Below, in pieces: positions 3,012-50,103 of a DNA stretch of 50,133 nucleotides. The stretch covers positions 34,681-84,813 of the forward strand of contig PS015012.1 of NCBI GenBank assembly GCA_048213135.1, in the 5' to 3' direction. Source of the DNA: Reclinomonas americana ATCC 50394. Its lineage: Eukaryota. The notes beneath the pieces were generated by a model. That model did not search any database. It saw only the letters and a program-made list of their open reading frames with translations, and had not been told where the DNA came from. The stretch's first letter is position 1; every line of letters starts with the position of its first letter. Position numbers and translations under genes: made by a program.

Positions 3012-6000
3012 ATGTCGCGCGTGGTGGCCGCCGTGCTCTTCCTCGTGCTCATTGTGGCCGTGCTGCACGTGTCGGAGGCCGTCGATCGCCACCGTCACAA
3101 GAACTGCACACAGACAGCACACTGCAGTCGCGCACGCAATCGCTCCGGTCCCTCGGCCTTTGGTCTGCGCACGGCTGGAGCCGCTGTGGATGCCGACTCG
3201 GGTCAGTTCCCTCACCTCCTCCCCTTCTCTCTCTCTCTCTCTGCACAATGTCTCTTGTGTGCACTGAGTGTGCATCTCTCGCTCTCTCTGCTTTCCACAC
3301 ACGTGAACCAATTTGCGTTGCGTGCGTGGAGTTGTTGGCAAGCCATGCACATGGCCAGCTCTTGCACACGCACACGCGCACGCACTGCTGTGCACTCCTG
3401 TCACCGGAGGCTGCACGTACACCTCTCACTCTCTCTCTTTCCCTCTTCCCTCTCTCTCTGCCATCTCGTGCTCATCACATGATGACGTAGGCGCATTCCG
3501 CGGTGTTGTCTTCAACAAACAGACGGGCGAGCAGGTGGAGGTAGAGGTGCAGGCGTTTGGCGATCAGGCTGTACGGCTGCGCCTGTTCGAGGGCGACTTT
3601 GCTGGCGACGAGAGCAGTCCGTCGGCGCTGGCGCACGACGAGAGTGCAGAGTCTGACGAGGCAGAGGAGGCCGACGAATCGGCATCAGCAGCGGCGGCAG
3701 CGGCAGTGCCGGAGAAGCAGCAGAGGCGCAAGTTTGGACGTCCGCAGATCGAGGGCGGTCGCTTCGACGTGAGTCGCGATGTGGTCGTCATGTCGCCGTC
3801 GCGCGATGGGCGTGTGGCGTTGATCGACGAGGCCGATTCGTCAGTGGTGACGATCAAGGCCGGTGCGGCGGTGCTGCGCATCGACCCGCAGACGTTCACG
3901 GTGGACGTGCAAGACGCGGAGCGCTCGTCGGTGTTTGTCGTCAATCGTCTTGGGCGCCTGATGTACGAGACCAAGCAGCGACCAAAGGACAACACGTACC
4001 CCGAGTCGTCGGGTCGCCGTGGTGACGCCAGTTGCGTGCGTGTGTGCCACAACCATGGCTCGTGTAGTGGTGGCTCACATCGATGCGTGCGTAGGCGAGA
4101 CGGCTGTCGGCGTGGACATTGTGCACGTCGGTGCTACGCACCTGTACGGCCTGCCGGAGCGCACCGTATCGTTCGACCTCCCGGAGACCAAGGATCGCAG
4201 CGAACCGTTCCATCTCTTCAACAGCGATGTGTTCGAGTACGAGATCAACGACACCATGGGCACCTACGGCTCCGTTCCGTTCATTCTGTCGCACTCCGAG
4301 AAGCGCTCAGCCGGTGTGCTCTACTCGAATCCCACCGACACGTGGGTCGACGTGGAGTCCATTGGCGAGGTGCGGCGGGCCGAGTCCGTGGATGCGCTTG
4401 TAGTATACTCATTCGACTTGATTTTGTTTCGCGCAGGGCAAGGTCAGCACGTGGACCAGCCAGTCGGGTCACGTTGACCTGTTCTTCTTCCTCGGACCCG
4501 ACCCCAAGTCCGTGATCAGCCAGCTGACTGCACTCACCGGTTCGTGTGGTCGACATTCACGAGTAGGGCAGTCAGTGTTTACTGACGTGCGCACTCTGTG
4601 CAGGTCGCGCGCCATTGCCGCAGCAGTTTGCCATTGCGTACCACCAGTGCCGCTGGAACTACAAGTTGCGCATCCTCTCTTCCTTCACAATCGTGCGCTT
4701 GGTGGTGACCAATTGTTTTCAATCACCAACAGGGATCAGGAGGATGTGGCCTCGGTGGATGCCAAGTTTGACGAGTACGACATTCCGTACGACGTGATTT
4801 GGCTCGACATTGAACACACAGACGACAAGCAGTACTTTACCTGGGTGTGTTGGAAGACAAATAATCGTCATCTTCTTCCTTTTTGTCGCTGTGGTCTGAC
4901 ATGCGTGTGTAGGACCCGGCCACATTCACCAACCCGACCCAGATGATCAACGGCATTGCTGCAAAGGGTCGCAAGGTGCGTCTGGACGAGCAGCTGTCGT
5001 CGCTCGCGCGAAGTGAGGCTAATCGCGTTGGTTGTGGCGAATGCACAGATGGTGACCATCGTGGACCCACACGTGAAGCGGCGTCGCGGCTACTCTGTGT
5101 ACGACGAGGCTGACGAGCACGGCTACTTTGTGCGCACCAGCGACGGTGGCGACTACGAGGGACACTGCTGGCCAGGTGTGCTACGCGCGATTACACTGCT
5201 GCAGCGCTGCATGCCTTCAGTCTCACCAGTGACTGGGTGCAGGTGCTTCGAGCTGGGTCGACTTCCTCAGCCCGGCAGTGCGCGACTGGTATGCGTCTCT
5301 GTTCTCGTTCGACAAGTACGAGGGCTCGACCAAGGATCTGTACATTTGGATCGACATGAACGAGGTGCGCGCTATCGCTGCCATCCTGTGTGCTTGTGTA
5401 CACCCCTTCTCACACCTTGCACCAGCCGTCCGTGTTCAACGGGCCAAACACCGTGATGGACTTGGATGCCGTGCATCACGGTGGAGTGCGTCATCGCGAA
5501 GTGCACAATGCGTACTCATTGTACCACGTTGCGTCGTCGTCTTGTGGTGTGCTGCTTGTTTCACGCCTACGGCATGTGAGACTGACGTCTGTTCCGCAGG
5601 CCATGTCCGTGTACGATGGCCTGGTGCGACGACGCAACGGCGAAGATCGTCCATTCATTCTGTCGCGCTCGTTCTTTGCCGGCTCTCAGCGGTTCGTGCG
5701 CGTCTCGCTTCCCCCCCACTGTGTGTGTGTGTGTTTCAAGGCTCACGCACCACTGCAGTTATGCTGCGCTGTGGACTGGCGACAACATGGCGACGTGGGA
5801 GCACCTCAAGTCGACGCAGCCCATGTTGCTGTCGCTGGGTGTCGCCGGCCAGAACTTTGTGGGAGGTTTGTGCATCTCGCTCTCTACCTGGCCACTTGCA
5901 CATGGTGATGCTTCATGCTCACACGTTGTCGTCTTCATGCAGCCGATGTCGGTGGCTTCTTCAAGGACACCGAGGCCGACCTGCTCGTCCGCTGGTACCA

Positions 6001-7788
6001 GGCTGGCGCCTTCCAGCCGTTCTTCCGTGCCCACGCTCACCTCCGTGCGCCGCTCACGCCCTTCTCTCTCTTGCGTTCCAAATTGCTGACTTGATTCTGC
6101 TTGTCGGTGGCAGACTCGGCTCGCCGCGAACCGTGGCTCTTTGGCGAGGAAAACACCAAGTTGATCCGCCAGGCCATTTGGACTCGCTACATTCTGCTGC
6201 CGTACGTGTACACACAGTTCTACCAGAACTCGCAGACCGGCGTCCCCGTAATGAGGTGTGTCTACTGCACGCAGCGCGTCCTCACTTCTTGTTGTTCTTC
6301 AGTTTACTGATCTCCATGCGCGCACAGGCCGCTATTCTTCGAGTTCCCGTCGGATGCTGGCACCTACAGCGAGGAGCAGGCGTACATGTTTGGCGACGCG
6401 CTGTTGGTGCGACCGGTGACCGAGAAGGATTCGACCAGCATCTCGCTCGCACTGCCGGGCGATGAGGTTTGAACGCGCGCGCGCGTAATGGACACGAGTG
6501 CTGCATTTCCTCATCTTCTCCTCTCTTGTCTTGCAGCCATGGTACGACTACTTTACCGGAGGCAAGCCGGCATCCAACTGGTTCGGCACAGCGGCGTCGA
6601 TTGACGTTGTGCCCGATCGCATTCCAGTCTTCCAACGCGGAGGTGTGTGTGCACTCGCACATGTGTGTGTGTGTGTGTGTTTCGTTCATGGTTCGCTCAC
6701 ACACGCTGCGTTTCTCTCAGGCACGATTGTGCCGCAAAAGCTGCGCATTCGTCGCTCCAGCAAGGCCATGCACAACGATCCGATCACGCTGCAGATTGCG
6801 NNNNNNNNNNNNNNNNNNNNNNNNNNNNNNNNNNNNNNNNNNNNNNNNNNNNNNNNNNNNNNNNNNNNNNNNNNNNNNNNNNNNNNNNNNNNNNNNNNNN
6901 NNNNNNNNNNNNNNNNNNNNNNNNNNNNNNNNNNNNNNNNNNNNNNNNNNNNNNNNNNNNNNNNNNNNNNNNNNNNNNNNNNNNNNNNNNNNNNNNNNNN
7001 NNNNNNNNNNNNNNNNNNNNNNNNNNNNNNNNNNNNNNNNNNNNNNNNNNNNNNNNNNNNNNNNNNNNNNNNNNNNNNNNNNNNNNNNNNNNNNNNNNNN
7101 NNNNNNNNNNNNNNNNNNNNNNNNNNNNNNNNNNNNNNNNNNNNNNNNNNNNNNNNNNNNNNNNNNNNNNNNNNNNNNNNNNNNNNNNNNNNNNNNNNNN
7201 NNNNNNNNNNNNNNNNNNNNNNNNNNNNNNNNNNNNNNNNNNNNNNNCCGAGCAAGGACGGCGCGGCGCACGGCCTGCTGTACCTCGACGACGGCCAGTC
7301 GTTCGAGTACAAGAACGGCATCAGCACCGTCCGCGTGTTTGACCTGAAGACCGAGCAGTCCACGATGCGACTGACGGCCTCCGATGCCCCCAATCACGTT
7401 GCGTCTTGTCATCAACGTGGCGACCCGCATGGCATTGCGGTCTGACAGTGGTGTTTGTTGCGGTGCAGCCACCAGGCTACGTGGCTGTCAACAAGCTGGA
7501 GCGCGTTGTGATTCTTGACGTCCCATCGAAGCCCTCGAAGGTGACTCTGATGACCAGCGATCCGGACGCAAGCGAACCGCAGCTTACCGGCAACACCTCC
7601 GACGAGGTGAGTGTGTGTGCATCAGTGGGCGTGTAGACTACTCTTGTACTGACCATGCGCCTGTGCTGTAGATGATGATAACGGCGGTGAAGCTTGACTT
7701 CCAGTACTCGGCAACCACCAAGGTGCTGACAATCAAGCGACCGGGCGTGCAGATTCTGCAAAACTTTGTGATGGAGGTGCACTTGTGA
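3012..7788 (+). CDS. GANAB: Glucosidase II alpha subunit (GH31 neutral alpha-glucosidase AB), at least 18 introns, interrupted by gap 6801-7247
   Basis: Signal peptide [23 protein letters not shown]. Spliced motifs include [61 protein letters not shown] (nucleophile), WTGDN (acid/base), [32 protein letters not shown] and C-terminal [12 protein letters not shown] at 7786-7788. Confidence 0.95.
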
Positions 7789-9918: not shown

Positions 9919-11020
9919 TCACTCTGGCACTCGCGGCCCACTGCCGACAAAGGGGTTGCGCTGGCACTTGAGCACGATCTCCAACGGACACGCGGTGGCC
10001 GAGGGGAAGGAGCACACGAAAGCCACGGTGGTGGCAATGTCGGCGGGTTGAATCATGTTTTCGCGAACGAGACCCGGGCGGCCGCTGGTCATCTCCGTGT
10101 CGATGAGCGACGGTTGCAGCACACTGACCCGGATGCCGCGCGACTGGCCCACATCCTCAAACACGCCTCGTGCAAAGGCCACCAGTGCGGCCTTGGTCTG
10201 CATGCACAACAAAGGCGGTGAATCACCGTGCTGCGACGATGCGTACACCACCACAGAAACGCAACAGCCGAGTAAGTGGCGGCTGCGGGGATGACTAGCG
10301 TGGCCAGGTCCGACGCCAGGTACACGAGTGTGGAACCCGCGTCGCAGAACGGCACCAGCAGTCGCGTGAGTCGCACTGCGCCCTCCACATTGAGCGAGAT
10401 GAGAGCCTCCTGTGTTCGTGGTAGAGTGCGATAAGTCTTCACGGCACCAACAAAAAACCCCCTCGCAGCAAGCAGCAGCTGACCAGCTTGTCAAGGTCGG
10501 CCTGGTCAATCGGCGACTTGTCCGACAGACCAGCGGCATGCACAAAGATGGACACTGCGGCGCCGCGCGGTCGCACCACCTCCTCCACGAGTCGCTCACA
10601 GTCTCCGCGCACAGCAAAATCGCCCACAAACAAGACCAGATCGAGCGGAGTGGCCACTGATGCTGTCCATCAGTCAGTCAATCAGTCAATCAATGCAGCA
10701 GTCAACGCAACAGTCTGCATACCTTCGGCCGCGCGTCGCCTGCACTCCTCTGCAGTGGCCTCCAAATGCGCCTGCTTGCGTCCGCACAGAACGAGAGGTC
10801 GTTCACTGCGAAATCGGAGTGTGAGAGAGAGAGAGATTGAGAAGAAGTGTGTGTGTGAGAGAGAGTGAGTGAGAGCGACGAACCTCGCAGAGAGTGCAAG
10901 CTCACTTGCAATCGCACGTCCGCATCCTGCATAACAAAGAGTGAGGAGAAATGCATTTCCGTCTCTCTCCTTTCTCTCTCTCTCTCACACACCACCACTG
11001 GCACCCGTCACAATGATCAT
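9919..11020 (-). CDS. Classical short-chain dehydrogenase/reductase (SDR), 5 introns
   Basis: The spliced product has MIIVTGASGGCGRAIA (TGxxxGxG), LVLCGRK, VHAAG, YLASDL, YSA/TKAAL (YxxxK across intron 10265..10198), LQPSLIDTEM and IQPADIA. TGA at 9919-9921. Confidence 0.9.
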
Positions 11021-11320: not shown

Positions 11321-14300
11321 ATGGAGTTTTCGGCCAGTGTGCCGCAAAAGAGCGGCTTCTTGTCGCTGAGATCGGAGCGCAACACGAGTCTGTGGACGCG
11401 CAAATGGGTCGTGTTGGAACGCGACCTGCTCTCGGTGTATGCGCGCATCGAGGACTACCCTGGCTTTCCCGAGGAGACGATTACGTTGCGCGGAACACCG
11501 GTTCTCCGCACCGCCATCCGACCCAACTGTTTCCGAGTACGAACACCCCTCAAGAGGTACGTGTCTTGATNNNNNNNNNNNNNNNNNNNNCTCATCACCG
11601 GCTCGGCAACACGACCGCCAGCGCGCGATTCCTCCTCCTCCAGCAGCAGCATACGCTGAGTGCGATCGCTCTCGTCCTCAAACATAATCTGCTGCTTCTC
11701 AATCAGGCGCAGCCACTCGTTGGTGCTCGCCGCGCTGCGATGTGCGTCGTCTTGGAAGAACAAGCTGGAGGACACGACGACGTGAGGGAGGTGAGTGAAT
11801 TGCAGGATTCCCGAAAGCGGTGCCATGATGAATAACGACAAACAATGACAGCCAATTACGAGCGCACACATAAGAGCACACACAGAGGGAGGAGAGTACA
11901 CACATGTGGGAGCCAGGGTGACGCACAACGACAAGTGACCAGCGCGGAAAAACCGCAAACACACGATATCCATCGCCGACGAGACAACTCGCCGGTACAC
12001 GCTCTCTGTGATCCACACGCTCTCTCCCTATCTCTCTCTTGTTGGGTNNNNNNNNNNNNNNNNNNNNACCGGACACACGCAACGTTAGCTGCAGGCTCCG
12101 AGCGCAGGCGGCCCATCTGCATGCTGGCGGGTGCCGAGCTCGACTGCGGCGTGTTGGCAGGGCTGTTGCAGCGACTGCCATTCTGCTGATGAGACTGCTG
12201 CTGATTCTGCTTGGACCGGGAGGCGCCCCACTGCTCGAGAATGGCGTAGTGACGCTTGGTCTGGATCGGCCGGTCGTACAGCACCGAATCGATGGCGCTG
12301 ACCCACAGCTCGAGGTTTTCGGGCGGCGAGTTGGACGGATCAATAAACAGCATCTGCGACTGATCGCCGAGTTCCAGCGAGAACCCCGAGCGACACGCAT
12401 CCTGCCACCTCTCCAATCGCGTGCGTCCATCCAGCACAATAGTCTGCATGCGCACACCCCACGAGTCCTCGTACTGGAACAGTGTGCGATCGCACAAAAT
12501 CCACCACGACTCCTTGTGTGTGCCTTCTCGGAGAAACACAATCTCAATCAGCACGACAAAGGAGGGGGAGGAGACCACAAACAAGAGCTCGTGGCTACGC
12601 ACCATGCAGTACGAGGGGACCGNNNNNNNNNNNNNNNNNNNNGCTCACCGACGCTTTGTAGTGGCGATCCTGACCCTGCTGTGCGTGCAGATTTACATGA
12701 ATCCGTTCACCCTGGGTGGTGAGGCGGCCGACGCCCCGACATCCACCGATTCCAGCAGTGCTGGCCAGCGGCCGGCCACTATGGGCGCTATGCCACAGCC
12801 GCCTGCAGGCCTCTCTGACCTGGCACACAAGTATCAGCCGCTGCTCGGTCTGCGCGAGCTGCGCGGTCTCGGCCCCGCCACTCCGCGCGGCATGAACAGT
12901 CCGCGTGGTCTCGGTGACCCCAGCATGCTGCTGCCACTGTTGCGCTCGCGCAGCGGCCTGGGCCTCAACTCACCGCGTAGCACCGGACTCAATTCACCCC
13001 GCGGCTCCGGTCTCAATTCACCGCGCTCCCTGCTCAACTCGCCACGCGGTCTGCCCGACGGCCCGGCACCCCAGCCACCGGAGTTCAACCCCACCTTTTC
13101 CAGCGGTCTGGTGCCGACTGCCATGGCAGCGCAGGACCCTGAGCTGGCGGCCCTGCTGTCGAGGATGGCGGAACGCTTCCCTGGATTGGCCAAGGACAAC
13201 CAGAATGTGGACGAGGTCATTGAGCAGCTGACCAACCTGTTGGAGGACAAGCACGAGAAGGATGCACTGATGGCCGTGCTCAAGCGTCGTCGCAAGAACA
13301 AGGGCGGCATTGGTCTGCAGCCGTCCGGCGGTGCCGACGGTAGCACCGGAAGCAGCTCTGGCGGCGGTGCATCGGCAGCGGCAGATGGCAGCGACGATGC
13401 GCCAACAGCAGACATGGGCGTCGGTCACGACTCTGACGACTCCGACGAAGACAACCTGGTGGACGAGGAGATGGCCAAGGACTCCAAGAAGAAGCAGACG
13501 AAGCGACGCCGCACTCAGTCGCTCTCGCTGATCATGCAAGGACTGGCCCCGGAACCCGAGGGTCGCAACTCGACAGCCGACGACTTGACGGCCGACCCCG
13601 CGAGCGACCACGCTACCAGTTCGATGAACATTGCCAAGTTGGAGCGCCGCTTGTCGACGACCATCAATCCCGGTCTGCTCAGCGATCGTCTGATGTCGCC
13701 GACCAACAGCAGCCGCCCAGTGATTACGCGTGCCGAACGCCGCAAGTCCATTCAGGACCTTCAGCGGTGAGTCCCACACACCGCATCACAGTGCGCATTG
13801 TGTCAGCTTCAGCAGCATCTCACCCCCTTTTTTTGTTGTTCTCGCAGATCGGCAGCACCGTCAGCCATGGAGGTGACGCAGGGTCTCGATGCGAGCCACC
13901 CACTGCTCGCGCACACCAAGGACCTCGCCGGTTCACTGGCCAGCCTCGAGAGCATGCAGACAAAGGAGCGAGTGCCGATGACACTGCTGGTGGCGCGCGA
14001 ACTGCCAGCCGATCACCCCATCTTCTCCAGCTCGTCGCTGCTGGCCGACAACCTCAGCTCGCGTCGCTCTCGCCGCGGCAGTGTGGTCTCCATGAGCTCC
14101 ATCATGTCACCGACAAACTCAAGGCAGTCCGTGTCGCCGAGCAGACGGGATCACCAACAACAGCCGCACATGTTCCCGGGTCTGCTTGACACCCCGGCTT
14201 CCGCGCCGGCGAGCCTTCTCCACGCTCANNNNNNNNNNNNNNNNNNNNNNNNNNNNNNNNNNNNNNNNNNNNNNNNNNNNNNNNNNNNNNNNNNNNNNNN

Positions 14301-26965: not shown

Positions 26966-27050
<85 letters not shown>

Positions 27051-32780: not shown

Positions 32781-34199
32781 CTATTCACTGCCTGTTCTCA
32801 GCAGCAAATCATTGACAGCCGCCACGTACTTGTCACTGTGCTCCCGCAGCAGGTGGTATCGTGGACAGTCGTCAAAGGAGACGCACTCGACCTTGTTGCC
32901 ATTCTGTTCGCACCACTCGGGAAGGAGCTGCTTCTCCACGTACGCCGGTGACATGATTGGATCCTTGGTGGAGTGGAGCAGGAGAAGCGGGAATGGTTTC
33001 TGCAGAGTGCGGGAAACGTACACATGACTCTTGGTTCAGCAGAAGCGCCAGTAGGGAGTGTGTGATACCACACCTTTGCCATGAGCGCCTTGGCCAGCTC
33101 GACACCCGGATTCTGTGCAAACAGACGGAAGGCCAGCTTGGCAGCCGGTCGAGCCCACAAGAACGTCCTACGATGATGGAGGGTGAGCACCGGCGGCACA
33201 CGTGCAACGAAACGAGTTCAACTTCTGCTCACCAGAACCAGTGAAAGTATCGCTCACGACCTGTGCGATGAGCATCAGCCATGCTGTGAGAGACCCACCA
33301 CATACACGCCGTGCGTACCGAGAAACTGCGACAGCATGGAGCGCTCGAGATTCTCCACAGACAACTCGGACGGTCCACTGTCAAACACCGCACCACGAAT
33401 CATCAGCATTCCATCGTCGCCGTACGCTCCCTGCACGCGCGCTCCACTGCTCAGGCCTCAACACAGCGCGGCAATCATCATCGCACTCACGCACACCTTT
33501 TCGGATTCCAACAGGCGGAGCACGGCCGAGGCCAACGCTGCACCGTTCTCACCAAATGCATGAATCGCACCACACGCCTGTCGCGTGGGAATGTGCTGCG
33601 TTTCCCCTCCAGCGAATGAGAAGCCAGCCATTCCTTCTTCTCATGGGAGCTAGACACTCACCAGCGCCTCTGATCGCGCATCAGCATAGGCCAGAAGCAA
33701 CGAGGCCAGCGCAATGGCGTGATACTTGAGCATGTGCTCATCCAACCAGTTCGGAACGCACACAGCACACTCGCGTCCTCGCGACGTGTGCAGCTCCACC
33801 ACCGACTGCAGCTGTTGCAGTGTCGCTCCCTGCCAGCCCATCACCAGCACCAGGAACTTTTCACGCACTGTGTCCACAACAGTGAGTGTGAGAGAGAGAG
33901 AGAGTGATTGCTGCACACACACCAACATCAGTGTGCGATGTGACACTGCTGCGAACAAGCCACACTCCATGCGCAGCCTCTTGTGTCTCTGTGAATGATG
34001 GCATGCATGAATCAGCTCTCTCTCAAAGGCACATTCCTTGCTCGTTTTGCGCATGCACACCTGCTCCGAGGGCTTGTCTTGCATCGGAGAGCATCACTGC
34101 TGACGCCAGCGATGCACGGGACCGGAAGCGGAAGGCCACATACACCAAAAGTCCAAAGTAAAGCACACCTAGTGCCAGACTCCACACGAGCAGCACCAT
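32781..34199 (-). CDS. TMEM53/DUF829-like alpha/beta-hydrolase-fold protein with an N-terminal TM anchor
   Basis: LVLVMGWQGA, IHAFGENG, IRGAVFDSGP, PLLLLHSTKDPIM and VSFDDCPRYHLLREHSDKYVAAV occur in the DUF829 motif order. The N-terminus MVLLVWSLALGVLYFGLLVYVAF is hydrophobic. Confidence 0.75.
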
Positions 34200-37200: not shown

Positions 37201-40200
37201 GAGTCGCACCTGCATCGCCGACAACAAGCAGTGAGGTTCACCTTCGGGGTAGCGCAGCGGCAGCGCCACACGTGTCTCTCTCACCTCAAGCAGTGCCTTT
37301 TCCAAGACCAGTGCACCTGGTGGCGTGTGCTGGTCGACGCCTGCGACCATCTGTGTCTCCCAGCAGTCGCGCAGCGTCAAGCAGACTTGGATGCACGTTT
37401 CGGCCTCGGTCCACTCGCGACGACGCGCTGCATCCTCGGCGAGCGCCAGTGCAAACAGCAGCGAGAACGACAACGACTCGAGGCGTGAAGCGAGTTCCAG
37501 ACCCCGCTTGTAGAACAGTCGCGGTTCCGTCACGTAGGCTGCGAAGATGATGCTCTTAGTGGGGGAGATTGTGCACGCCAGTTTTGCGAGACGACGCACC
37601 ACACAGCTCATGAAGACAGCCACACTCGTACAGTGCAGCCAGCACATTGTGCGATGCTACAAGGTCGACTGAGTGAGAAACAACAAACAATGCCGATAGA
37701 CAAGTGTGAAGTTGTGTGGAACACACCCCCTGTCTGCTGACTGGCATGCATGAATCGCAAGGCAGAGAGCGCATGCTGCGTCGCTTCTGCAAAGCGGCCG
37801 AGGCAGCGCAGTGCTCGCGCAGCAGTCAGATGTGCGGCACCAAGTGTTCCGCTGTCGAAGAAAGAGAGAGTGAGAGAGTGCGAACGTCAGCAAAATAGTA
37901 CACACGGGGCCATTGAAACACATCACGCACACACCTTGACGCGATGCGGAGCTCGGTGGCACGAGACAGTGAACTCAAGCCGAGTTCCAGATGCTCCTCT
38001 GCCGCCTCCCGGTTGCCCAACTCCACGGATACTCCGGCGCTGGCCAGTGATGCCACCATCTGATGGTACACGCAAATATAAGCGACCACGATCATGTCTC
38101 CAATGAATCCTTCGCATACCTGAGCGAGCAGCGCTGCATGAACGGTTTTTTTTGCACTTGATCGAGCATTCGCATTGAGCTGGCGGGCAATGCTGCGTGT
38201 CTTGGCTGCACTTTGTTCTGCCACTGTCAAATCGCCAACTGCGCACATGGCTGCGTCAGAGAAGAAGCACCACGCGCGCGGGGAGAGCAAGCGTGTCGCA
38301 ACTAGAGACGGCGACAGCGCACATGCGGGCAAGATCGGCGCACTCCTCCAGCTGCTGACTTACTGACGTGGACCGTGCCGCTCTGGCAAGGCGGCGATGC
38401 GACACCACAAGACGCAGTGTTGCCAACTCGGCGGTGAGATCGCCATGCAGCGCAAAGAGGTCGGCGGCAGATTGCAGCACACGTCCACTCCGCTGCACAT
38501 CAATGGCGCACAAGGCCAGCGACACGCTGTCGTGTTCACGACGCGCTGGTGAAAGCAACTCGGTTAGCAGTGGGTGCAGCGTGCATTTGTGTCTCACATT
38601 AGCGCACCTGCAACATGTCCCAGCATGCATGCCCAGATCTCCACGGCCTTCTGCAGACACTGCACTGCCGTGCGGCGCGTGTGCTTGTCAGCAGGAGAAG
38701 TTGGTACGATCCACCATCGGCTCGAGCCGCCAGGGGTCCGGCTTGCGGCAGTCCGTCGCGCGCCCTTCTTGCCACTCGTGCTCTTGCCACCGCGACCTCG
38801 TGTCACCTCTACAGCGGCCGCCGCTGTCGCCATCAAACCAGATGCGGCACCTGTGGACTGCTGCTGCTGCTGACCGACTTCTTCACCACCGAGCGAAAGT
38901 GCCGCGAAATCAGGGATTAGGCTGCGACCGAGAAGTGCAAAGTCACTGCAAACACATTACAAGTGAGCGACTATGCAGTGACACGCACTCTCCTTCATGA
39001 TCCACGCACCTCTCATCGTCATCATCATCGTGACCAGTGGCATCGACCGTGAGCTCGTCACTCGGTTGTCGGTGACTCATCGTTTGCAGGGCACTCGTCA
39101 TGCCGCACACGAGCTTGTCGTGCCCCAACAATTCGTTCCCGAGCATGACGTACGCCGTTGCCAGTTGGTCGAGCAGCTGCGGCAAGATGAAAACACGTGG
39201 TAAGCTGGAGGGGTCAACCAAGAAGAAGCGATTGGTGACAAAGTCGCAACTCTGTACAGTCGGCACGCATCCTCGGTGAACTCGACATCAGCCAACCCGG
39301 CACTCGGTGCAGTTGTGTCGCACAACTCGTCCGGGCACACGACAGCCAGGCTTTCCGCTGCTGTTTGCGCCACCGTAATGGCCTGTCGTACAACACTGCA
39401 GCGGTCTTCGCTGCCGTCGTCCATCAGCAGCGCTTGCGTCAACTGTGTGTGCACAAACAACAATGAGAGTGCTGCGCCATCCAGGCCAATGTCCATACGA
39501 CGAACCATGAACACCACATGCTCGGTGGGATACTCGACACCGTCGCCAAACACCGGAACACTGCTAAGGAAGGCCATCGTCCGATTGCAGTCGTCACGCA
39601 GGGTGTCTCGCGTCGCCGGAGCTGACTCCATAACATTGAAGTAGGCCAGCACTTCTCGGAGACAGGCGAGACCACCTCCACGCGACACGTCCACATCGTC
39701 TATGCTCTCCGCCAGCCGCAGAATCTCAAAGAGACAGCCCGGATTGCTGTCCTCTGAATCCATTTCCTCGTCCTCCTCCTCCTCCTCCTCCACATCTTCG
39801 TCCTCAAGCGGCTGAGCAACGCCCAGGCTCTTGACTTTGAGCGAGACGAATGCCTCCACAGATGAACTGGAAATCTCGCCCGTGGTGTGCACGGCCTGCT
39901 GCATGGCGGCACAGAGGCACTCCAGTCCGCTCTGCGAATCGTTGGCCAGCTCAAAACACCGAGCGATGAGCTGCTGGCACTTTTGCGTTCGCGCCGCATT
40001 CTCTGTCTCGTCGCCGTACAGTTCGCCAGCTCTGAGCAACGACGTGAGAAGACCATGAGATAAACTGCAGAAAGAAAGCTCAACTCAACTGCTTGAGAAA
40101 CTCAATGGCCTCCGCCACCAGTCCATCGTTGAACAGACATGCTCCAAAGTTGTAAAAATGAATTCCGAGCATGGTGCGGCACGACTGCTGCTCCAGTAAT

Positions 40201-42696
40201 CGGTGCAAGTGCTCGTCGTTGATGACACACCACAGCCACGCACGCACTTGGTCGACGTGATTCCTGTTCGTGGTTCATAAAATGGTGAGTGATTTCCCCA
40301 CAAGGGAACGCTTGCTATAATCCACACGCACTTGAGGCGCTGCTGACCGGCAGCCGCCGCATCAGTGTCCACAGGCGCTGGACTGTCCTCTCCAGAGTGC
40401 TGCCCAGAGTCATCATCGTCGTCGTCGTCAAACATCTCTGTGTCCTCTTGCGATGCCAGCGCATAATTCAGCGCTCCTTCCCCTCCGCCACTCTGACTGC
40501 CAGCGTCCTCTCCGACACTCCCCTCCGCACACGTCACATCCACCAGAGCTCCAACGGCATCGAACAAAAATGCCGAAAGCTGCTCGAGCTGTTTTTGCCA
40601 GCATGTTAGCTTGTGCATGACTCGAGAAGCGCACGAGACGACCACGAGGTCACTGAACCTGCTCACGCATTGCCTTGTCGGCGGTGCCTGAGGAGGCCAA
40701 TGCCGCACGATAGGCCTGAACGGCACATTCCAACAGCATGCTTAACCGGCGGCGATGTGTGGCCGATTGCATGCGGATGCACTGCTGGGTGGCCTTTCGC
40801 ACCGAGCCGCCCATGTAACGCACGACACCGCGGAAAACCTTGCACAGCAGCTGCGGAACCTCATCCCGACTTGCACCGCTGTCGATTTCGCTGCACAGCT
40901 CACTGAAGGCGGTGATCAGCGGTTCGAGACGCTCAACTGCACACGCCATGGATGAGTGGAAATGAGAAGAAAGTTTGTGGCCAGCAAAGCAGCGGGTGAC
41001 AAGATTTTGCGCACTTGTGGCCTCACACTCATCCACGCTGTCGTCCAACGATGACGCGGTCAGCTCCTCCAACGTGACCGCCAGTGACCATATCAGTACG
41101 CGCGACTACACATCACACACATGTAAGCAAAACATGTCGTTGCTCCAGTGTTGCTCCCGCCCGCACCACGCAACATCAGTGCCGAGCCCCTCCACCCAAT
41201 TCTGCCAATGGGAACTGCTCGAGGCGCTTCTCCACACGGTACTGGCGTGCTCGAGGCAGCGAAGCATGGGCATGACAGTGGTGGGAACCGCAGACAACAG
41301 CGGCTGGCCGAGTTTGAAAAGCTGATCGTAAAACGCAGCACACACGCTCCACACTGCGCATTGGATCTTGTCAGTCACACGAAGCCAAGCACAGTGACAC
41401 ACCGACACACAGACACGCACCGGCGGATGTGGCCGGCGCCTTTTGTGTCAGAAAGAGGGCGTACTTGAGACCCTGTTCGAAAAACACAGGGTCGGTGCCC
41501 TCTGAGTTGCCCGCCAGCACATGGTCGACGTGAAACTGCAAGCCGAGCAAGCGAAGGCGAGCGGGTAAAGGGAGCACTGGAACTGCGTCGCCTTTCCGCC
41601 GCTTTCCACCACCGCTCTTGCTACTGCTTGCAGTCGACGACGCGGGCATGACAGGAAGATCTGCACACGCGTCGGAGGCTGAGGCACACTTGAAAGCAAT
41701 CCTAAACATGGCGTCCAACTCGCGCATGCTGTCGGGAGAGCCGGCGGTTCTTGAACGCAGTTGCAGCCACTCGGCGACCTGCATGAGAGCAGTCTCTGCA
41801 GCCGTAAGGTCGTCAGGAGTTGCTGCACCGGCTGCGGCCTTGGCCCACTGCAGAAGTGCAGTCACGACCAGAGCGCTGTACGAGTTGGTGTCCGTGACCG
41901 CTGCGTCGTCATCGAAAGAGAGTGAGTCAAGCAGGCTCACTCTTCCCTTACGCCTTCCCCCCTTACCATTCGCTCCTGCTCTCTGCAAGTCGCCACCACG
42001 CACACTAGCGAGTAGGGCGCATGCGTGTTGACTGCAGTCCACGCGCTCATCGCCGGCGTCAGTGCATCGCGCCGACAAGTTGATCCACAGCTTCGCCACA
42101 TCCAGCGCATCCAGCTTGGTGTGCTCTCGCCACTCCGTCAGCAACGCCAGCGAGCGGCGTGTGATGTACAAGAGTGCTGCCATTCTACTCTTGCCGGCTG
42201 CGAGAAACGCATGTCAGTGACTTTGTCAGCGCACGACGCGGAAACAACACGCCCCACCTGCCGAAGCCGCCACTGCCGTCTTTCCCCATTCAGCCACTCC
42301 GCGCAGGCACCCCTGTACAACCTTCAGCAACACCGACGCAACCTCGCTGACCAGCGTCCTACACAGCGTCATGTGAGTGGTCAACTTCTCACGTACACAC
42401 TGACGGTCGATGCTCAACTTGCGCGCCCGCGCATCGTCTTGAGAGGCGGCCGAGTGCTGCTCGGCGGCATCGAGAAGCGAGTCGAAGGGCCCACAGAGCG
42501 ATTCGACATCACCGGGCTCCTTGACGAGTCGGAGCACACTGTCGAGTGCGCGACCCCGATTCTCCGCATCACCGAGCGAAAGAGTTTTCCGCGACAGTGA
42601 TGACGACGAAGACGAGGAAGATGATGACGACAATGGTGCTGCTGCTGGTAGGGCGTCTACGTCACAGCTCTTGCCTTTGCCACGGCGTTGCGCCAT
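34259..42696 (-). CDS. ESP1: Separase (peptidase C50), about 20 introns
   Basis: A large helical N-terminal region is followed by KKAWWSAREVLDQRM, VDRRLQPLPLESMPFL, VTRIPSL, YILNPHGDL, LVYFGHGAGERY (catalytic His), LIGCSSGRL (catalytic Cys), VGNLWDVTDRDID and LNGAAAVCYGVP. Confidence 0.95.
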
Positions 42697-42783: not shown

Positions 42784-44601
42784 TTATTGAGGAACATAAC
42801 CGAGGAACCTATTTAGTGAAGGTCGACGGTCTTGTCCGTCTCGGCCGTGCTGATTCACGGCCACACTTAATGCGGAGCTGGCCGACGAAGCCGACGAATC
42901 GGGTCGTGGCACATCGAGGTGGTGATCAACGCCACCGCCCCCTGCTGCGGCTGCTGCACCTGCAACGTCATGGATTGCGCTGCCATAGAGAGGCTGCAAA
43001 AGAAAGAGTTCAGGCACCTGGCACAGGGATTCGGGCCCCCCAAGAAAACAAAGACAGCGGTCACGAAACATTGACATTGTCATCGTTGGCATCGTCCCAT
43101 GCTACCACGCGCTCCGCTTGCGCCACATCTTCGACAGCCGCTCGGCCGCCACTGGATGCTGATGCACGATCATCCAGCTCAACTCCTTGCTGCTGATCCT
43201 GATCTTCGGGGTCGGCGACCGAGTGTGGGTGCGAGGCATCACTGAGTTCGTTATCGCTCTCGTCGAGTTCATCTTGCAGCACTTGCTGGAGTCGGTATCG
43301 TGCGCGCTGGTTCGCGTCCACCAGCGACCCAGAACGGGCGTGCGGCGCAGATGCGAGTCGCGCCAGAGCCGGCGACGATGGAGAAGACGGCAGGGGCACA
43401 ACAGCCGCCGACGCGGCCATTCCAGCGACGGCAGGCGATGCGGACGACAGCGGTGATGGGTCTTGGACCACCGACGGCAACGCGTACGAGGGTGACGACA
43501 GTGCATCGTGCAGCGCAGGCGACGACCCGCTAGACACAAGTGAGGCGGCAATGGCCGCGCGAACCTCGGCATTGTTGAAGTCGGCGTCGTCGTCCAACTC
43601 GAGGTCGGTGAACGCACGTGGATGCGCAGCCGCTGATTGTGCGCCGAGGAATGCACCACCGATGGGCGGTGCAACGTACACCGGCAGCCGCGGTACTGCC
43701 ATGTCGCCGACTGTGGCCTGAATCTCGGCCAACTCGGCAGGGCTCGCGTTGTCGCGATCGGCAAAACCGCGTCGCACACGACGCAGATAGCCCGGCACCT
43801 CGTCGCCAACCTGCGCAGGCGGTGGCAACGGTGCCGCTGGCTGACGAGCAGCGCCCAGATAGTATACGCCGGTGTTGTGCGCTCGCTCAGCGGCCGACTT
43901 TTGGCTGCGGCGTCGGTGTCGTCGCACGCACACGACAATCACCACAATCAGGACGATGAGAGCAACACCGCCACCGCCCGCGGCACCTGCAATGAGAGGA
44001 ATGCTGATTCCACTGCTGCGGCTGGTGGTCGTGGAGGTGGAGCTGTTGTTCGAGGAGGCTGCACGGCATGCGCGTGTATCAGAGACAGAAAGAAACATGA
44101 TGAAGCGAAATAGACAAGGATGCGCACAATCGTTGCTCGGCGGGCTCGAGCCAGCAGAGGGATCGGAGGGAGTCGGGCTGGTGGGTGTGGTCGGTGTGGT
44201 CGGTGAGGTGGGTGTTGACGGCGTCGACGGCGTGGAAGGTGTGGAGGGCGTGGATGGCGTGGAAGGTGTGGAGGGCGTCGATGGAGTTGACGGAGCCGGG
44301 ACGACGGCCAGGGTGGAAGCGGACTGCGACGGACCGAAAGGACCCGTACCACTCGAATTGACGGCTTGGCCGCGGAACTGTGAAAAGATCGACACGCTTC
44401 CTTGTTGGCGCCGCATGGGAGAGGTAGTAGTAGCAGACATGGGGAAGGCGTCTACTCACGTAGTACGTGGTTCCAGATGTGAGGTTTGGCACCGTTGCTG
44501 TGACCGACGCCGAAGCACGCGCAGTGATATCACCGCGGCTGCTCCGGGTGCCCGTGGTCTGTGTGGGAGTGACATTGACTAGTCCGAGGCTGTGCGTGCG
44601 C

Positions 44602-44636
<35 letters not shown>

Positions 44637-47600
44637 TATGATCAGAGGATTGGGTGGGATANNNNNNNNNNNNNNNNNNNNCAGCGTGTGGTTCGGCAGT
44701 CGGCAACAGTACCCCGAGTCAAATGTGGCCGAGGTGGAATACTGAATGTTCCAGCTCAAGATCGTAGCACCACCGTCCCACGGTACCGTGACGGTCACGG
44801 AGACTGACGTCGACGACGGCGACGAGACGGAGGGTGTGCTCGGGAACGGCGGTATTGTAGAACCTGTTATGAGGTGGTGAGAAGCGCAACATGNNNNNNN
44901 NNNNNNNNNNNNNTGTGTTTCCTGTCTCACGCCCCAAGCTACCAACCGTTGACTGCGTAAGTGATTGCGTCCGTGGGCTGACTGAACACGGCAGACTTTG
45001 CGCGCACTCGCAGGTACATGGTGCTGGAGGCCGCAATCCCGCTGATATTGACAGACACGGACGTCGTCGAGGAGGTCACTTTGGTGCTGCCGGAGAAGTC
45101 GGCGGCCACAGCATACTCCAACTCGTACGTCTCCGTTAATGACTGCGTGCAGCGAGGTGGTGAGCGAGTGCGTCACAGACGAAATACACGACTGACATGT
45201 GAGTGTACCAGCGATGCCGTGCGATACGAGGCTTGCCAGCCGGCCGTGAGAGTGGAGCCAGACAGGTTGCGTACGCACAGAGACAGTGGCCGATGCGGCG
45301 CAGATGAGCTTGTTGCAGCTGTGTTGATATTTTGGAGAAGGTCAGAGACGAGGAAATAGTAAGACTACAGGTGCAGCAACATGCACACACCGGTGGTGAC
45401 TGCCGTGGCCACCAGAGACGGTGGTGACTCGCCAAACGAATTGATCGCAATCAAACGGAAGTAGTACACGGTCGAGGGTTGCAGATCAAAGGCCGTCACT
45501 GTCATTGATCCCGACGAGCGTGTCACCGTCTGGTGTGGTGTCGGCAGCAGATGAGCGACAATGCGACGATTTGGAGAAGGAGGTGAGGACAAGCGCCAAA
45601 CACACCAGCGAGTTCGTGATCGGCGCGAGACCCGTGGCAGGCGGGAACAAAGCCGACGTGGACCATTCCAGTCGATATTTGGTAGGCATGGGCGACAGCG
45701 TATCGGCACTCGTCCACGTGACATCGGTGGTGGTCGCCGCCGGCTGACGCGCAAAAAAGAAAGAAAAATAACAAACACAAGGTGAGTAACTACACGTTAG
45801 GTTGGTGCACAGCAGTGGTGCGTGCGGCCTCACCGTGGGCGTCGTAGTCAGCACGGGTGCCGATGGGACCTGACCGGCCACTGGCACCGCCGGACCGACA
45901 AAGGCACTGCGCGAACTGAGGGTGCCGGCATTCGTGTACTCGACCTTGAAGTAGTACGTGGAGCCGGTGGTGAGTCCGGTTACATCAAACGCCATGACAC
46001 CACTCGCCGTCCAGCCAGAGTTGTTGGCGACTTGCGACGTGATCAAACTGTTGTCGTTGGCACTCGAGTAAATGTACACGCGACGTGAGGAGAGCGCAGT
46101 GTACAGTCCGCCGGAGAACGACGGCACGGAGGCGACCAGCGTGACTGAGGTGGCGGCGATACTGGCCACTTGCGGGAGCGTAATCGCCGCCGGTGCGACG
46201 GCAATGTTGGCACCGGACACGACCAAACCGAACGACTGCGGTGCCTGCAGCACCTTGGTGGCCACCACACGCACCGTGTAGACGCCCACAGCAGGCGACG
46301 TGAGAATCACTTTCTCGGCCGTGTTCTGATTATCTGTTGAGCTCTGCGGGATTGAGAAAGAGAGGGNNNNNNNNNNNNNNNNNNNNGAGGGAGAGGGAGA
46401 GGGAGAGGGAGAGGGACAGGAGAGAGGGAGAGGGAGAGGGAGAGGGAGAGGGAGAGGGAGAGGGAGAGAGGGAGAGAGGGAGAGAGGAGAGAGGGAGAGA
46501 GGGAGAGAGGGAGATTAGCAACCGTCGTCGTGTGGTGAAGGGTGAGTGGAGTGCACGAAACAGCATAACCAAAGAGCTGGTTGCCCGTCTGCAGCAACGC
46601 GGCCGAACTGACAGTGGTGCCACTGTACACGGCCAGATCGAGGTCGGCCTGCAGTGCGGCTCCCGGAAAGTCGGTCCAGCACAGCGCAATGCTGACACTC
46701 GCACTGGTGCCGGTGACTGCAAACTGCGCCGTAAACGTTTGTCCTTGCGACAGCAGCGTCTCCTCGTTGGAGAGCACCAGTGTTCTGCACAATGGTCAGT
46801 CAGTCGACCGGTAACAAGCCTATCACGTGGGGAGCGACGCACGAAGACACGGTGCTTGGATCGACATTGGAGCCCGTGGCAGCGACGGCCGACATGACAT
46901 TGTCGAGAAGGACGCGACCAAAGCCTTGCACCGACGAGTTGACCTTGTCGGTGAGCGTCGAAATTGAAATCGGCGAGTCTGTGCGACCGCAGGTGAGCGC
47001 ACAGTTTACAAAGAAAGAGGTGTGCTGCTGTCGGAACGCACTCTGATTGCAGCACGTGCCGGAGATGCGCACAGCCGAGTTGATGAGCATGGCCTTGATG
47101 AGTGCGGCAGAGGGTGTGGCAATGGCCAACGACGACGCGCCGGTGCTGTCGGCCGAGAACGGGTACTTGGTACGCAGCCACTGCCGCACAAGTGCTGATG
47201 CGGACACAAACGGGTGAGAATTTGCACACACACACAGGGAACAAAAGGACGACAACAGTAGGCAACGCACAAGCGGCACCAGCAACACCCGGTGTGGCCA
47301 TACTCGTGCCTGCGGAGAGAGGGAAAGGATGAGAAAAAGTGAGGTGCTCGAATGTCTCACATCGGCAGTACGTACCCTGCAGCCCGGTCGTGTGATTCGC
47401 CACATTCGTCACTGCGATGTGAGGTGCACGCAGTGAGCAAGAGAGTAGATAGACAACGCCCTTACAAACATCAGCACTGCGTACCATCGGCACGAACACC
47501 AGTGCCACATATGTCGGAACCCGGAGAAGTGGACTGTGAGAGAGCGGAAAACAAAACGCCCCTGCGCGGCAGACGTGTGTCAGTCACAGCTGACAATGCA

Positions 47601-50103
47601 CAAGGGTCGACTCGGTACGTGACACGCAACGGACTGACGACGTGGACGCCGAATCGGCCTTCCGGAGTGGGACCTGCGAGGCGAGTCAGATCTCGCTCTT
47701 TTCGGTGTCGCGTGCGACCGAGTGCGTGCACACACCTCGTGATGAAAAGTACATCATGTTGCTGGCGAGGGTTTTCCAGTTCGTTGCACCCACACTCAAT
47801 ACGTTCTTGGCCGACGCTTGCGAACTGCACGGGGAAAAGAGTCACTCAATGTCAATGTATCTCGCGCGGACACAGTGGTGACAGTCACGCAACGAGACGG
47901 AGGAGGTCTTTGGGCCCGAGTTACCGGCCGCGAAAATCACCAGCGTATCCTGCAATTCAAATGGGGGTGGTGTGGGCACAACGTTGGATGCACAGAAAGG
48001 GAGGCTGGCGGCACCACGCACTCGATTGTCCCAGGCGAATTCATCCAAGTCGGTGGACATGGAGTCGTACGAGCCGGCGCCGCCGCCCCACGAGTTCGAG
48101 ATGATGGTGGCGCCACTGGCTCGCATCACCGACAAGTACGCAGCATTCACATCCACCGGCAAGTACAGCGACGACTGCGGTATGCAAAAAGACGGTGAGC
48201 AGGCAATACCAGCTCTACACCTGGAGGCGGGGCGGCGGTCTCACCGACGATGACGGGCACACAGAGTTTGCCATGAACAAACAGTCGCACTGAATGGCCG
48301 AGGGGCACTGGCAGCCGCCAGGTTGCATGCACCCCACGTCGTAGAACATGATGCGTGCTCCCGACGCGACGCCGTTGTAGGACGCAAGTGCGGGGGCCGA
48401 CGACACGGCAGCACCGAGTGCGGTGCCAGACTGCACAGAGACAGCAATGGATGAGCCTGCAGGTGACTCGAGCATCCACGACAGTGTACGCAACAACATG
48501 AGTGCCGTGACCGCCTGTGATGCCGTCGACCGAGTCCATGAAATTAAAGTAGCCCTTGACTTTGCGATGTGTCGACGAGAACACGGTGGACACGGAGTTG
48601 GAGTACGAGATCGATGTCGACGAATCGTAAAAGTAGCAGGATCTGGAGCGAAAAAGGAAAGGGTCACAGTGAGGCGCGCGGGAGAAGAGGAAGAGACTGC
48701 AACGAGACGAACCCAGTGTCGAGGCCGGAATCACCAACACCTGTCGGAGACATGGCGCGCGTGTTATGGTCACGCAATGGTTTTCTTTCGAGGTGCATCA
48801 GCAGCGTACTCACCTATGACCTCGCTAGAACCGGTGAGCACGCTCGAGTACGGCGTAGAGCCGGAGACATTGGTTTGAATCACCCAGCGCAAGTCTGTGT
48901 TGAAGTTGGAGACGATTCGCCGTTCCTACAATACACCACACACACACATTGATTGAGCAGCCAGCACCGACAATCATGTTGAAGGCAGCTGCATACGCAC
49001 ATGCACGACAATCACGCGCGGGTGTGCCTCAAAGGGCGCCACCACCGCCGTCAAGTCCACGTCGGGTGCGAATCCGAAAATCACCCACGATCCACCGGCC
49101 ACAGCCCAGCGACGAACTGCACTCGTGGTAGGTGAGACAGGCGGCGCACCCCGATCGGCACCACGACAGGCGCACACACCTTCGATATCGCTGGCACGGA
49201 GTGCCTCGACAATCTCTGCTGCGAATTGCTCGTACAGCGGATCGAGTGTATCGGCCGCCACATGCGCCTGCACCAGCAGCGCCGGCACTTCCTCTGTTTC
49301 CGACTCCGCACTCGTGGCAATGGCTGTGCGAGGGAGTGGTGAGCGGCGAAGCACAAGATGAGCAAGAAGAAAAAGGTGTGGCGTGACGAAACATTGCCGT
49401 CGTCGCACACGATCGGCCAGGTGCGTCGACACGCGACTGGGCACGACTTTGCTGTACTCGACCACCCACACCGCCGAGGCCAACCGATCGCGAATACGGA
49501 TCATGGCCTGCCAGGGCCCGTACACCAAAAACGCATTGTCCGGCACATGAATCACCGTGAAGCGGCGATCGGGAGCCACATGACCCAGTGGATCCATCTG
49601 CGCGCAGTGTTAGTAAGCCACCGGCAGACAAAGACAAGGAAAAAGCAACACCACTTGAGAAATCGAACCTCGCGCAGCACATTTACAATAGAGCGTCGTG
49701 TCTCCAGCGACACTTGCGCGCCCACCAGCGACACCAAGTACAGTCGCCGCTCAGTCAGTGACTGTCGCGTGGTCTCCACTGCAGTGACCAGTGCCGATGG
49801 CACCGCCGACGTGTCCACCACATGACCAGTGGCCGGCAGTCGAATGAACCGCTGTGATCATCATATCACAAAACATGATGAGAATTGTTACTGACAATGG
49901 TTCTCTCATGCACTCACCTGCCCATCATCACTGCTGCGCGCAACGTCAGCAGTGTCGCTGTCATGATCGTCATAATCTCCTCTCGCAAATGGGTGTGAGG
50001 AGGATGAGACTGCTCTCGCAGACACCATGCTCACTGTTGCGATGATCATCAACGTGACGACGAGCAGTGTCAGTCGCGACCATCGTGGTGGCTTGGGACG
50101 CAT
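42784..50103 (-). CDS. Type I membrane subtilase (S8, Kp43/TagC-like): signal peptide, prodomain, catalytic domain, beta-barrel, about 4 FN3-like repeats, PST stalk, TM helix, cytosolic tail
   Basis: Catalytic residues are intact after splicing: GVGDSGLD, HGTHV/SGT, FAAGNSG and G/TSMATP. Other motifs are SNSWG, AKNVLSVGA, FSSRGPT, PSAALIKAMLINSA, QGFGRV and LCWTDFPG...DLDL. FN3-like segments include LTTGSTYYFKV, LQPSTVYYFRLIAINSFGES and LTSGTTYYFRGQAVNSSG. The TM is IAGAAGGGGVALIVLIVVIVVCV. The final exon follows intron 43069..42994 and ends at TAA 42784-42786. Confidence 0.9.
44165..44295 (-). repeat. Coding 9-nt-period repeat giving a (PST)n mucin-like stalk
   Basis: Translation PSTPSTPSTPSTPSTPSTPSTPSTPTSPTTPTTPTSPTPS. 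Confidence 0.9.
46387..46512. repeat. Intronic (GAGAGG)n purine simple repeat
   Basis: Directly visible next to a 20-N gap within subtilase intron 46561..46344. Confidence 0.9.

Follow-up and report, generated by a model that had tools for sequence, protein, structure and literature searches.

Across a 50,133-base stretch of the Reclinomonas americana ATCC 50394 genome (contig PS015012.1, positions 34,681 to 84,813; hereafter the window), introns begin with two kinds of 5' splice site: ordinary donors of the GTGCGT type with G at +5 (class 1), and a second kind of the GTTGCG type with G at +6 and no G at +5 (class 2). Based on homology, coding statistics and the sequence around these sites, we propose, with a probability that we put at roughly 55%, that the class-2 introns are ordinary U2-type GT-AG introns that carry a second, frequent kind of 5' splice site, N/GUUGCGU, read by U1 in a shifted register (here and below the slash marks the splice junction). 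Every count rests on this single stretch. An earlier note on this DNA had listed 28 class-2 donors by inspection, and all 28 motifs are present at their coordinates and on the strands assigned to them. As the picking of frame-compatible GTs by eye could mislead, we tested the class by means that make no use of the donor sequence.

Class-2 introns pinned by homology

Homologous proteins were aligned to the DNA with a protein-to-DNA spliced aligner that allows introns to start with GT or GC and to end with AG, charges one flat intron penalty and contains no donor model. Nine of the 28 donors are pinned by homology, as follows (nt, nucleotides; 3n, length divisible by three):

4665-4732, + strand: class-2 intron of the GH31 gene, junction WNYK/D; GTTGCGCA..ACAG, 68 nt; picked by 15 of 15 GH31 homologs
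5528-5599, + strand: class-2 intron of the GH31 gene; GTTGCGTC, 72 nt, 3n, stop-free; picked by 11 of 15 homologs; read-through coding score negative
10198-10265, - strand: class-2 intron of the short-chain dehydrogenase gene, junction YSA/TK; GTTGCGTT, 68 nt
21864-21964, - strand: class-2 intron of the OSCA/TMEM63-like gene, junction DKFN/LLRTY; GTTGCGAA, 101 nt
23643-23777, - strand: class-2 intron of the OSCA-like gene, junction YGAFG/R; GTTGCGTC, 135 nt; gapless to the closest homolog, P0024; stop on read-through
25722-25790, + strand: class-2 intron of the HAT1 gene; GTTGCGTG, 69 nt, 3n, stop-free
28847-28909, + strand: class-2 intron in the kinesin motor domain; GTTACGCG, 63 nt, 3n, stop-free
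29507-29564, + strand: class-2 intron in the kinesin motor domain; GTTGCGAA, 58 nt
48431-48494, - strand: class-2 intron of the subtilase gene, junction HGTHV/SGT; GTTGCGTA, 64 nt

The conserved GH31 core (4540-6720) contains 13 introns, each backed by 11-15 of 15 full-length homologs, and forbidding the donor at 4665 lowers the alignment score with all 15. The exons around 10265 are contiguous in two Pfam profiles (adh_short 102-151/152-188 and adh_short_C2 100-145/146-218). In the OSCA-like gene the exact intron at 21964 is chosen with 15 of 30 homologs and its donor with 16 of 30, and the alignment to P0024 crosses the junction without a gap. When the HAT1 intron at 25722 is read through, the translation matches human HAT1 in two blocks (residues 138-186 and 188-236) that are separated by 24 extra residues, and removal of the 23 intron codons renders the match gapless. 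In the kinesin motor domain, the flanks of 28847 match positions 122-149 and 161-186 of the Kinesin profile, leaving 9 residues for 11 profile positions and a single alternative frame-compatible donor, 27 nt upstream; those of 29507 match positions 229-272 and 275-314, and downstream of the aligned residues there is no alternative GT, just GC at +3 and +9. For the subtilase the comparison consists of one weak homolog, P0023, which pins 48494, with a gapless match (GHGTHV/AGS) under all three intron penalties tried, and pins neither 47893 nor 47630. If all GTTN[AC]G donors are forbidden, the sole fallback is a GC 3 nt downstream, and the score drops by 9 to 31 with every one of the 15 GH31 homologs and by 24 with P0024.

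Donor-blind prediction, strand bias and the share of introns

As a test independent of homology, we used a donor-blind Viterbi gene finder, which combines a three-periodic coding model, an acceptor matrix and a length term, scores all GTs equally and takes strands from coding scores. Acceptor choice in short windows often landed on distant sites, and these choices were excluded from the counts. The run predicted 109 introns, with the following usage of sense-strand sites:

T at +3, G at +6, no G at +5: 15 used of 124
A, C or G at +3 with G at +6: 13 used of 764
All other sites without G at +5: 25 used of 1630
G at +5: 56 used of 1120

Class-2 sites are used at 15/124 versus 38/2394 for the other sites without G at +5 (odds ratio 8.5, p=1.3e-8), and GTTGCG is the hexamer most used by this run, at 8 of its 38 sense copies. 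The joint occurrence of T at +3, G at +6 and a base other than G at +5 also exceeds what independence of these three positions predicts (15 observed vs 4.9 expected, p=1e-4), so that the class survives the comparison on which the earlier note had staked it. In all, the donor-blind run recovers 12 of the 28 claimed donors.

The bare hexamer GTTGCG is not enriched in the window, with 50 copies on both strands against 44-54 expected under Markov orders 1-3, and it is therefore position and strand that carry the signal; the heptamer GTTGCGT is enriched, with 23 copies on both strands against 9-13 expected under the same orders. Relative to the genes, GTTGCG is split into 38 sense and 12 antisense copies (p=3e-4) and GTTGCGT into 20 and 3 (p=5e-4), and six of seven control hexamers (GTTGCC, GTTGCA, GTTGCT, GTAGCG, GTCGCG and GTTGTG) are balanced between the strands. 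The seventh, GTGGCG, is split 61:36 between sense and antisense and the broad pattern GT[ACG]N[AC]G 475:345, which points to a mild bias of a general kind towards the sense strand.

A gene finder equipped with a single ordinary donor matrix keeps only 6 of the 28 donors and then mis-builds conserved exons in three genes (GH31, HAT1 and kinesin). With a two-class (mixture) donor model, 29 class-2 and 111 class-1 introns of at most 300 nt are obtained among 144 introns in total, with 22 of the 28 claimed donors recovered, although the class count of this model is partly circular. Subtraction of a 1.6% background from the donor-blind usage leaves about 13 class-2 and about 38 class-1 introns, i.e. 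about a quarter in class 2, and the homology-checked genes give 2 of 13 introns (GH31) and 2 of 11 (OSCA-like). Taking the model share (29/140) together with that of the two homology-checked genes (4/24), the estimate of "roughly a fifth" of introns made in the earlier note is a fair one for the window.

Class-2 introns resemble ordinary U2-type introns

All 28 class-2 sites start with GT, and the 27 that are assessable all end in YAG (25 CAG, 2 TAG). The read-through coding score is negative in all 27 of these introns, while the 60 nt upstream score as coding in 24 and the 60 nt downstream in 20, the downstream measure being noisy, since two of its seven negatives belong to homology-pinned introns. 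In 23 of the 27 a branch-like motif of the form yTnAy lies 8-40 nt before the 3' end, versus 76 of 396 exon control segments. The median intron length is 68.5 nt in class 2 (n=24) vs 72 nt in class 1 (n=89).

Three other identities for these introns were considered and rejected. U12-type introns are excluded in that their long conserved donor of the RTATCCTT type is absent from all 28 donor contexts. A GC-AG intron with its start moved 3 nt downstream scores lower with 15 of 15 GH31 homologs and with P0024, and the eight variants other than GTTGCG have no GC at that position. Introner-like copies were not found among the repeat families of the window, which are merely microsatellite-like apart from one 30-nt pair (21282-21311/45154-45183). 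This pair, 87% identical, lies in the 3' parts of two minus-strand introns, namely the doubtful one at 21330 and another at 45143-45388, both with CGCTCAC.

Register of donor recognition

The classes also differ at the last exon position. This position (-1) is G in 60 of 76 class-1 cases (14 of 15 among the homology-verified) versus 2 of 28 in class 2 (none of the nine pinned; p=2e-11), and in the donor-blind set, for which it was never scored, the figures are 34 of 56 versus 1 of 15. Scored with the class-1 matrix, the exon ends of class 2 reach a log-likelihood of -148.3 in register, -118.0 when shifted by one and -119.3 for background. Positions +3 to +7 of class 2 (T 100, G 79, C 89, G 100, T 71%) correspond to positions +2 to +6 of class 1 (T 100, G 76, C 36, G 100, T 62%), and G/GTGCGT and /GTTGCGT are identical bar the second base, so that the first G of the intron stands in for the exon G. 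At +3 only T is tolerated, with A, C or G at +3 and G at +6 being used at the background rate in the donor-blind run (13/764); in the shifted alignment the T at +3 supplies the U of the GU and cannot be replaced, hence the disuse of A, C and G. On the loss of the exon -1 G and the confinement of +3 to T, the data favour a shifted over a bulged register. The earlier note had suggested "shifted or bulged donor recognition"; what stands of this is that the sites are real, place their G at +6, are frequent and mirror the human registers, while its bulged half fits worse on these same two counts.

In a shifted register, the U1 small nuclear ribonucleoprotein (snRNP) would dock alike on the heptamers G/GUGCGU and GUUGCGU. 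On class 2 it would sit one nucleotide out of register with the cut, with the intron G at +1 occupying the slot of the exon G at -1, and U6, U5 and Prp8 would later place the cut at the sole GU, one base upstream. Extended to the genome, this would amount to a two-register 5' splice-site code, in which about a fifth of introns are recognized out of register and need no exon -1 G, with a tightly fixed GUUGCGU being read by an adapted component, either a second U1 5' end or changed contacts of U6, U5, Prp8 or U1C. We advance this wider proposal tentatively and regard it as a possibility rather than an expectation.

Several observations weigh against the class as proposed and its shifted reading. 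Sixteen of the 28 sites are intron-like yet unpinned, and a further three (12083, 21330 and 41174) are doubtful. Class 2 is tighter than a shifted class 1 should be, with C at +5 in 25 of 28 where the class-1 counterpart is C in 36%, T in 36% and A in 26%, and GTTNTG is never used as a donor. Shifted pairing to the standard U1 5' end is weak, amounting by hand count to about five pairs with two internal mismatches, and a bulge able to occupy either of two identical U's would favour T at +3 as well. The tight C at +5 and the unused GTTNTG fit neither register with a standard U1; they may point to contacts of U6 or Prp8, or to a non-standard U1.

Of the competing explanations, a bulged register survives best. 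Here U1 would pair normally with G+1 and U+2, U+2 or U+3 would bulge out, and G+4, G+6 and U+7 would take the place of +3, +5 and +6. Dropping one T does convert the class-2 donors into observed class-1 donors (GTTGCGT to GTGCGT, GTTACGT to GTACGT, GTTGAGT to GTGAGT, GTTTCGT to GTTCGT and GTTCAGT to GTCAGT), migration of the bulge within the two-U run could favour T, and among 201,541 human sites 68 are predicted to carry a +2/+3 bulge, 54 of them remaining after curation (Tan et al. 2016, PMC4856993). However, with a bulge the exon -1 G would still pair and is expected to be kept or strengthened, whereas it falls from 79% to 7%; scored in register, the exon ends lie 30 log units below their shifted likelihood; and A, C or G at +3 reaches only background (13/764), whereas the human list holds 51 sites with a bulge at +3 only. 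We accordingly grade the bulge as unlikely.

Less likely still is a dedicated small nuclear RNA (snRNA), that is, a second U1 or a changed U6/U5 context with a 5' end matching GUUGCGU, which would provide two particles for the two donor classes. This would account for a class-2 consensus that is sharp over seven positions and for the C at +5 (25/28) that standard U1 pairing leaves unexplained, and both consensus motifs would seem to pair poorly with the standard U1 5' end. Yet the window has no snRNA gene at gathering scores, with relaxation to E values of up to 1 returning a single chance match to a bacterial small RNA, and the shifted register can account, with no second snRNA, for the lost exon -1 G as well as for heptamers that differ by a single base. 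Finally, it is very improbable that the GTT sites are mis-called, with the true donors being the GC 3 nt downstream (GTT/GCG...) or nearby GTs and the 3n stop-free cases being coding insertions: chance makes GTTGCG frequent (50 copies in the window), a frame-compatible alternative GT or GC lies within 30 nt of most sites, and 16 of the 28 are unpinned and six are 3n and stop-free, but homology fixes nine junctions to the residue, alignments that fall back on the GC score lower with 15 of 15 GH31 homologs, this GC is absent at the eight GTTTCG, GTTACG, GTTGAG and GTTCAG sites, the donor-blind enrichment reaches p=1e-8, and the single-matrix gene finder, which kept 6 of 28, mis-built the conserved GH31, HAT1 and kinesin exons.

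Unpinned and doubtful sites

The remaining 19 class-2 sites are the following:

7398-7468, + strand: class-2 candidate in the GH31 C-terminal region; 71 nt; picked by 2 of 15 homologs in a poorly conserved region; frame shift on read-through; CTGAC branch-like motif
12077-12083, - strand: GTTGCGT motif alone; doubtful, as a run of N at 12048-12067 begins 16 nt into the putative intron
16800-16870, - strand: class-2 candidate in a PWI-domain-like gene; GTTACGTC, 71 nt; found by the donor-blind run; CTCAC branch-like motif; downstream exon of 21 nt
19872-19938, + strand: class-2 intron, unpinned, in the FERRY-subunit-3-like gene; GTTGCGTT, 67 nt; found by the donor-blind, single-matrix and mixture runs
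21275-21330, - strand: doubtful class-2 donor in the OSCA-like gene; beyond the last homolog-aligned residue, the P0024 alignment ending at 21331
22784-22858, - strand: class-2 candidate in the OSCA-like gene, ambiguous; GTTGAGTT, 75 nt, 3n, stop-free; picked by 3 of 30 homologs
25074-25139, + strand: class-2 candidate in the HAT1 gene; GTTTCGAG, 66 nt; stop on read-through
26148-26210, + strand: class-2 candidate in the HAT1 gene; GTTGCGTC, 63 nt, 3n, stop-free; CTCAC branch-like motif
28039-28103, + strand: class-2 candidate near the 5' end of the kinesin gene; GTTGCGCG, 65 nt; weak, upstream coding score +1.0; found by the mixture run
32515-32572, + strand: class-2 candidate in a small gene; GTTGCGTA, 58 nt; frame shift and stop on read-through; CTCAC branch-like motif
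38239-38302, - strand: class-2 candidate in the separase-like gene; GTTGCGAC, 64 or 52 nt; CTGAC branch-like motif 18 nt from the 64-nt acceptor
39177-39250, - strand: class-2 candidate in the separase-like gene; GTTGCGAC, 74 nt; found by the donor-blind run; frame shift on read-through
40032-40089, - strand: class-2 candidate in the separase-like gene; GTTGAGTT, 58 nt; found by the donor-blind run; stop 9 nt in
40589-40658, - strand: class-2 candidate in the separase-like gene; GTTCAGTG, 70 nt; CTAAC branch-like motif 18 nt from the CAG
41106-41174, - strand: doubtful class-2 donor; both flanks non-coding, -10.0 and -22.5
42994-43069, - strand: class-2 candidate at the 3' end of the subtilase gene; GTTTCGTG, 76 nt; found by all three gene-finder runs; stop 8 nt in
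46344-46561, - strand: class-2 candidate; GTTTCGTG, 218 nt including a 20-N gap; found by all three gene-finder runs
47562-47630, - strand: class-2 candidate in the subtilase gene, after a 43-nt exon; GTTGCGTG, 69 nt; CTGAC branch-like motif
47825-47893, - strand: class-2 candidate in the subtilase gene; GTTGCGTG, 69 nt, 3n with a stop; found by all three gene-finder runs

Reading through the intron at 19872 brings both a frame shift and a stop, and at 21330 the read-through stops 9 codons on and the downstream coding score is negative. At 22858 the P0024 alignment prefers to remove 22858-22917, a segment that scores as coding (+8.3), the claimed intron scoring as non-coding (-1.9). In the HAT1 gene, the exon downstream of 25074 corresponds to positions 19-89 of the Hat1_N profile, the upstream exon being too short for pinning, and the candidate intron at 26148 has a coding score of -13.0 versus +9.8 and +10.4 for its flanks; a search of the PDB with 26006-26383 gave zero matches, hence this site is unpinned. 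The flanks of 32515 score as coding (+9.6 and +9.8), and the gene-finder runs pass the site over. For 40658 there is a rival donor, GTGAGC, 8 nt upstream, which the gene finder favours with a 46-nt intron ending in GAG. Within the subtilase gene a path via 47641 scores equally with that via 47630 against P0023, and this homolog does not discriminate at 47893. Pfam searches with the exons of the FERRY-subunit-3-like gene, the separase-like gene and the small gene gave no match spanning a junction.

The subtilase catalytic region (47487-47824, - strand) appears by eye to consist of very small exons, one of them of 43 nt (47631-47673). The gene finder missed several of these small subtilase exons, and the true intron count there is consequently above the prediction.

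Further donors of the class-2 type, absent from the list of 28, were picked by the mixture or donor-blind runs:

4031-4094, + strand: unlisted class-2-type donor; GTTGCGTG
20471-20530, + strand: unlisted class-2-type donor; GTTGCGCA
16709-16778, - strand: unlisted class-2-type donor; GTTTCGCT
33168-33213, - strand: unlisted class-2-type donor; GTTTCGTT
44839-44987, - strand: unlisted class-2-type donor; GTTCAGTC
49324-49392, - strand: unlisted class-2-type donor; GTTTCGTC

The donor at 4031 is also picked by 7 of 15 GH31 homologs, but with an implausibly short intron of 37 nt. Three donors on the plus strand have neither G at +5 nor the class-2 pattern, at 28670 (GTGCTTAC), 25370 (GTACAGTG) and 29703 (GTAGGAGA), and may represent a small third donor group; the kinesin segments on either side of 28670 can be aligned to solved motor domains of CENP-E.

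Genes of the window and their relatives

The window comes from the nuclear genome of an intron-rich eukaryote, holds about 14-15 genes, has 58% G+C and is interrupted by assembly gaps in the form of 11 runs of N. Family or homolog matches identify genes for GH31 glucosidase II alpha, a short-chain dehydrogenase, a FERRY-subunit-3-like protein, an OSCA/TMEM63-like channel, HAT1, a kinesin whose motor domain is closest to CENP-E, and a subtilase. An asparagine-synthetase-domain protein, a PWI-like protein and a separase-like protein were labelled, like the repeats and membrane span of the subtilase, by reading the translations rather than by a family search.

No identical or close proteins were found for those of the window in the collections searched: the best GH31 match is 53% identical over one exon, and an exhaustive protein search with the OSCA exon gave 601 hits, the best with 44% identity, a word-indexed protein search with the same exon giving zero matches. 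Among five homologs looked up, one from the jakobid Andalucia godoyi is 33% identical. In metagenomes the OSCA exon matched 44 loci, the first-listed of which is 36% identical; identity over long matches is at most 36%, with 40-62% reached only in three short matches of 26-53 residues; these relatives being distant, they offer no close relative in which conservation of the donors could be tested. The genome seems to be unannotated and the lineage poorly sampled.

Two further regions of the window stand out by their composition. At 12604-15755 on the plus strand, flanked by minus-strand genes, lies a long, almost intron-free, low-complexity open frame rich in Ser, Pro and Ala with strong coding-type periodicity. 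At 26796-27302, between the HAT1 and kinesin genes, a long, low-complexity, purine-rich tract of (GA)n, (GAA)n and (GGA)n repeats surrounds a gap of 60 N; it is translated by the gene finder into poly-D, poly-K and poly-E, but is probably intergenic.

Relation to known splice-site registers and significance

Roca and Krainer reportedly described in 2009 atypical human 5' splice sites that are read by shifted U1 base-pairing, and bulged-nucleotide and asymmetric-loop U1 registers are said to have been added by Roca et al. in 2012. According to Tan et al. 2016 (PMC4856993), validated noncanonical U1 registers in humans comprise 3119 sites, or 1.5% of 201,541, among them 68 sites with a +2/+3 bulge and 51 with a +3 bulge. 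As in the human shifted sites described there, class 2 has a GU followed by U, a consensus displaced by one position, the intron G+1 in the slot of the exon G-1 and the cut at the GU. Unlike them, it is built on GUGCGU rather than GUAAGU and, where they are rare, makes up about a fifth of introns and occurs in 11 of about 14-15 genes; moreover, its register is deduced from sequence statistics rather than from suppressor U1 experiments. Like the human bulged and asymmetric-loop registers, class 2 gives the ordinary consensus when one nucleotide is removed, and, just as G at +5 excludes the noncanonical registers in humans according to PMC4856993, class 2 has no G at +5. Unlike the human bulge registers, it admits only T at +3 and has lost the exon -1 G.

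A departure from the standard 5' splice-site code that likewise puts the U1 register in question is presented for appendicularian tunicates, in which, according to the abstract, 95% of introns abandon GT/AG (NAR 2026, PMC13326754). There the departure is lineage-wide and here it is seen in one window, and, unlike the tunicate introns, class 2 keeps both GT and AG, with only the downstream part of the donor being displaced. The literature found on shifted and bulged registers and on the motif, supplements being outside the scope of the search, consisted of human work and the one tunicate paper, none of which describes a lineage as having an abundant shifted class. Class 2 is a known kind of site, matched by human shifted and bulged 5' splice sites that make up at most 1.5%, at an unprecedented frequency.

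Given that a gene finder with a single donor matrix keeps 6 of the 28 donors and mis-builds conserved exons, standard annotation of this genome would get about one intron in five wrong. If class 2 holds genome-wide, a register deemed a rare human exception can act as a routine second signal, which bears on the old question of what sets the cleavage position at sites where the GU is at odds with U1 binding. Should the two-register code be true, this organism would provide a natural system in which U1 docking is uncoupled from the choice of cleavage site at scale.

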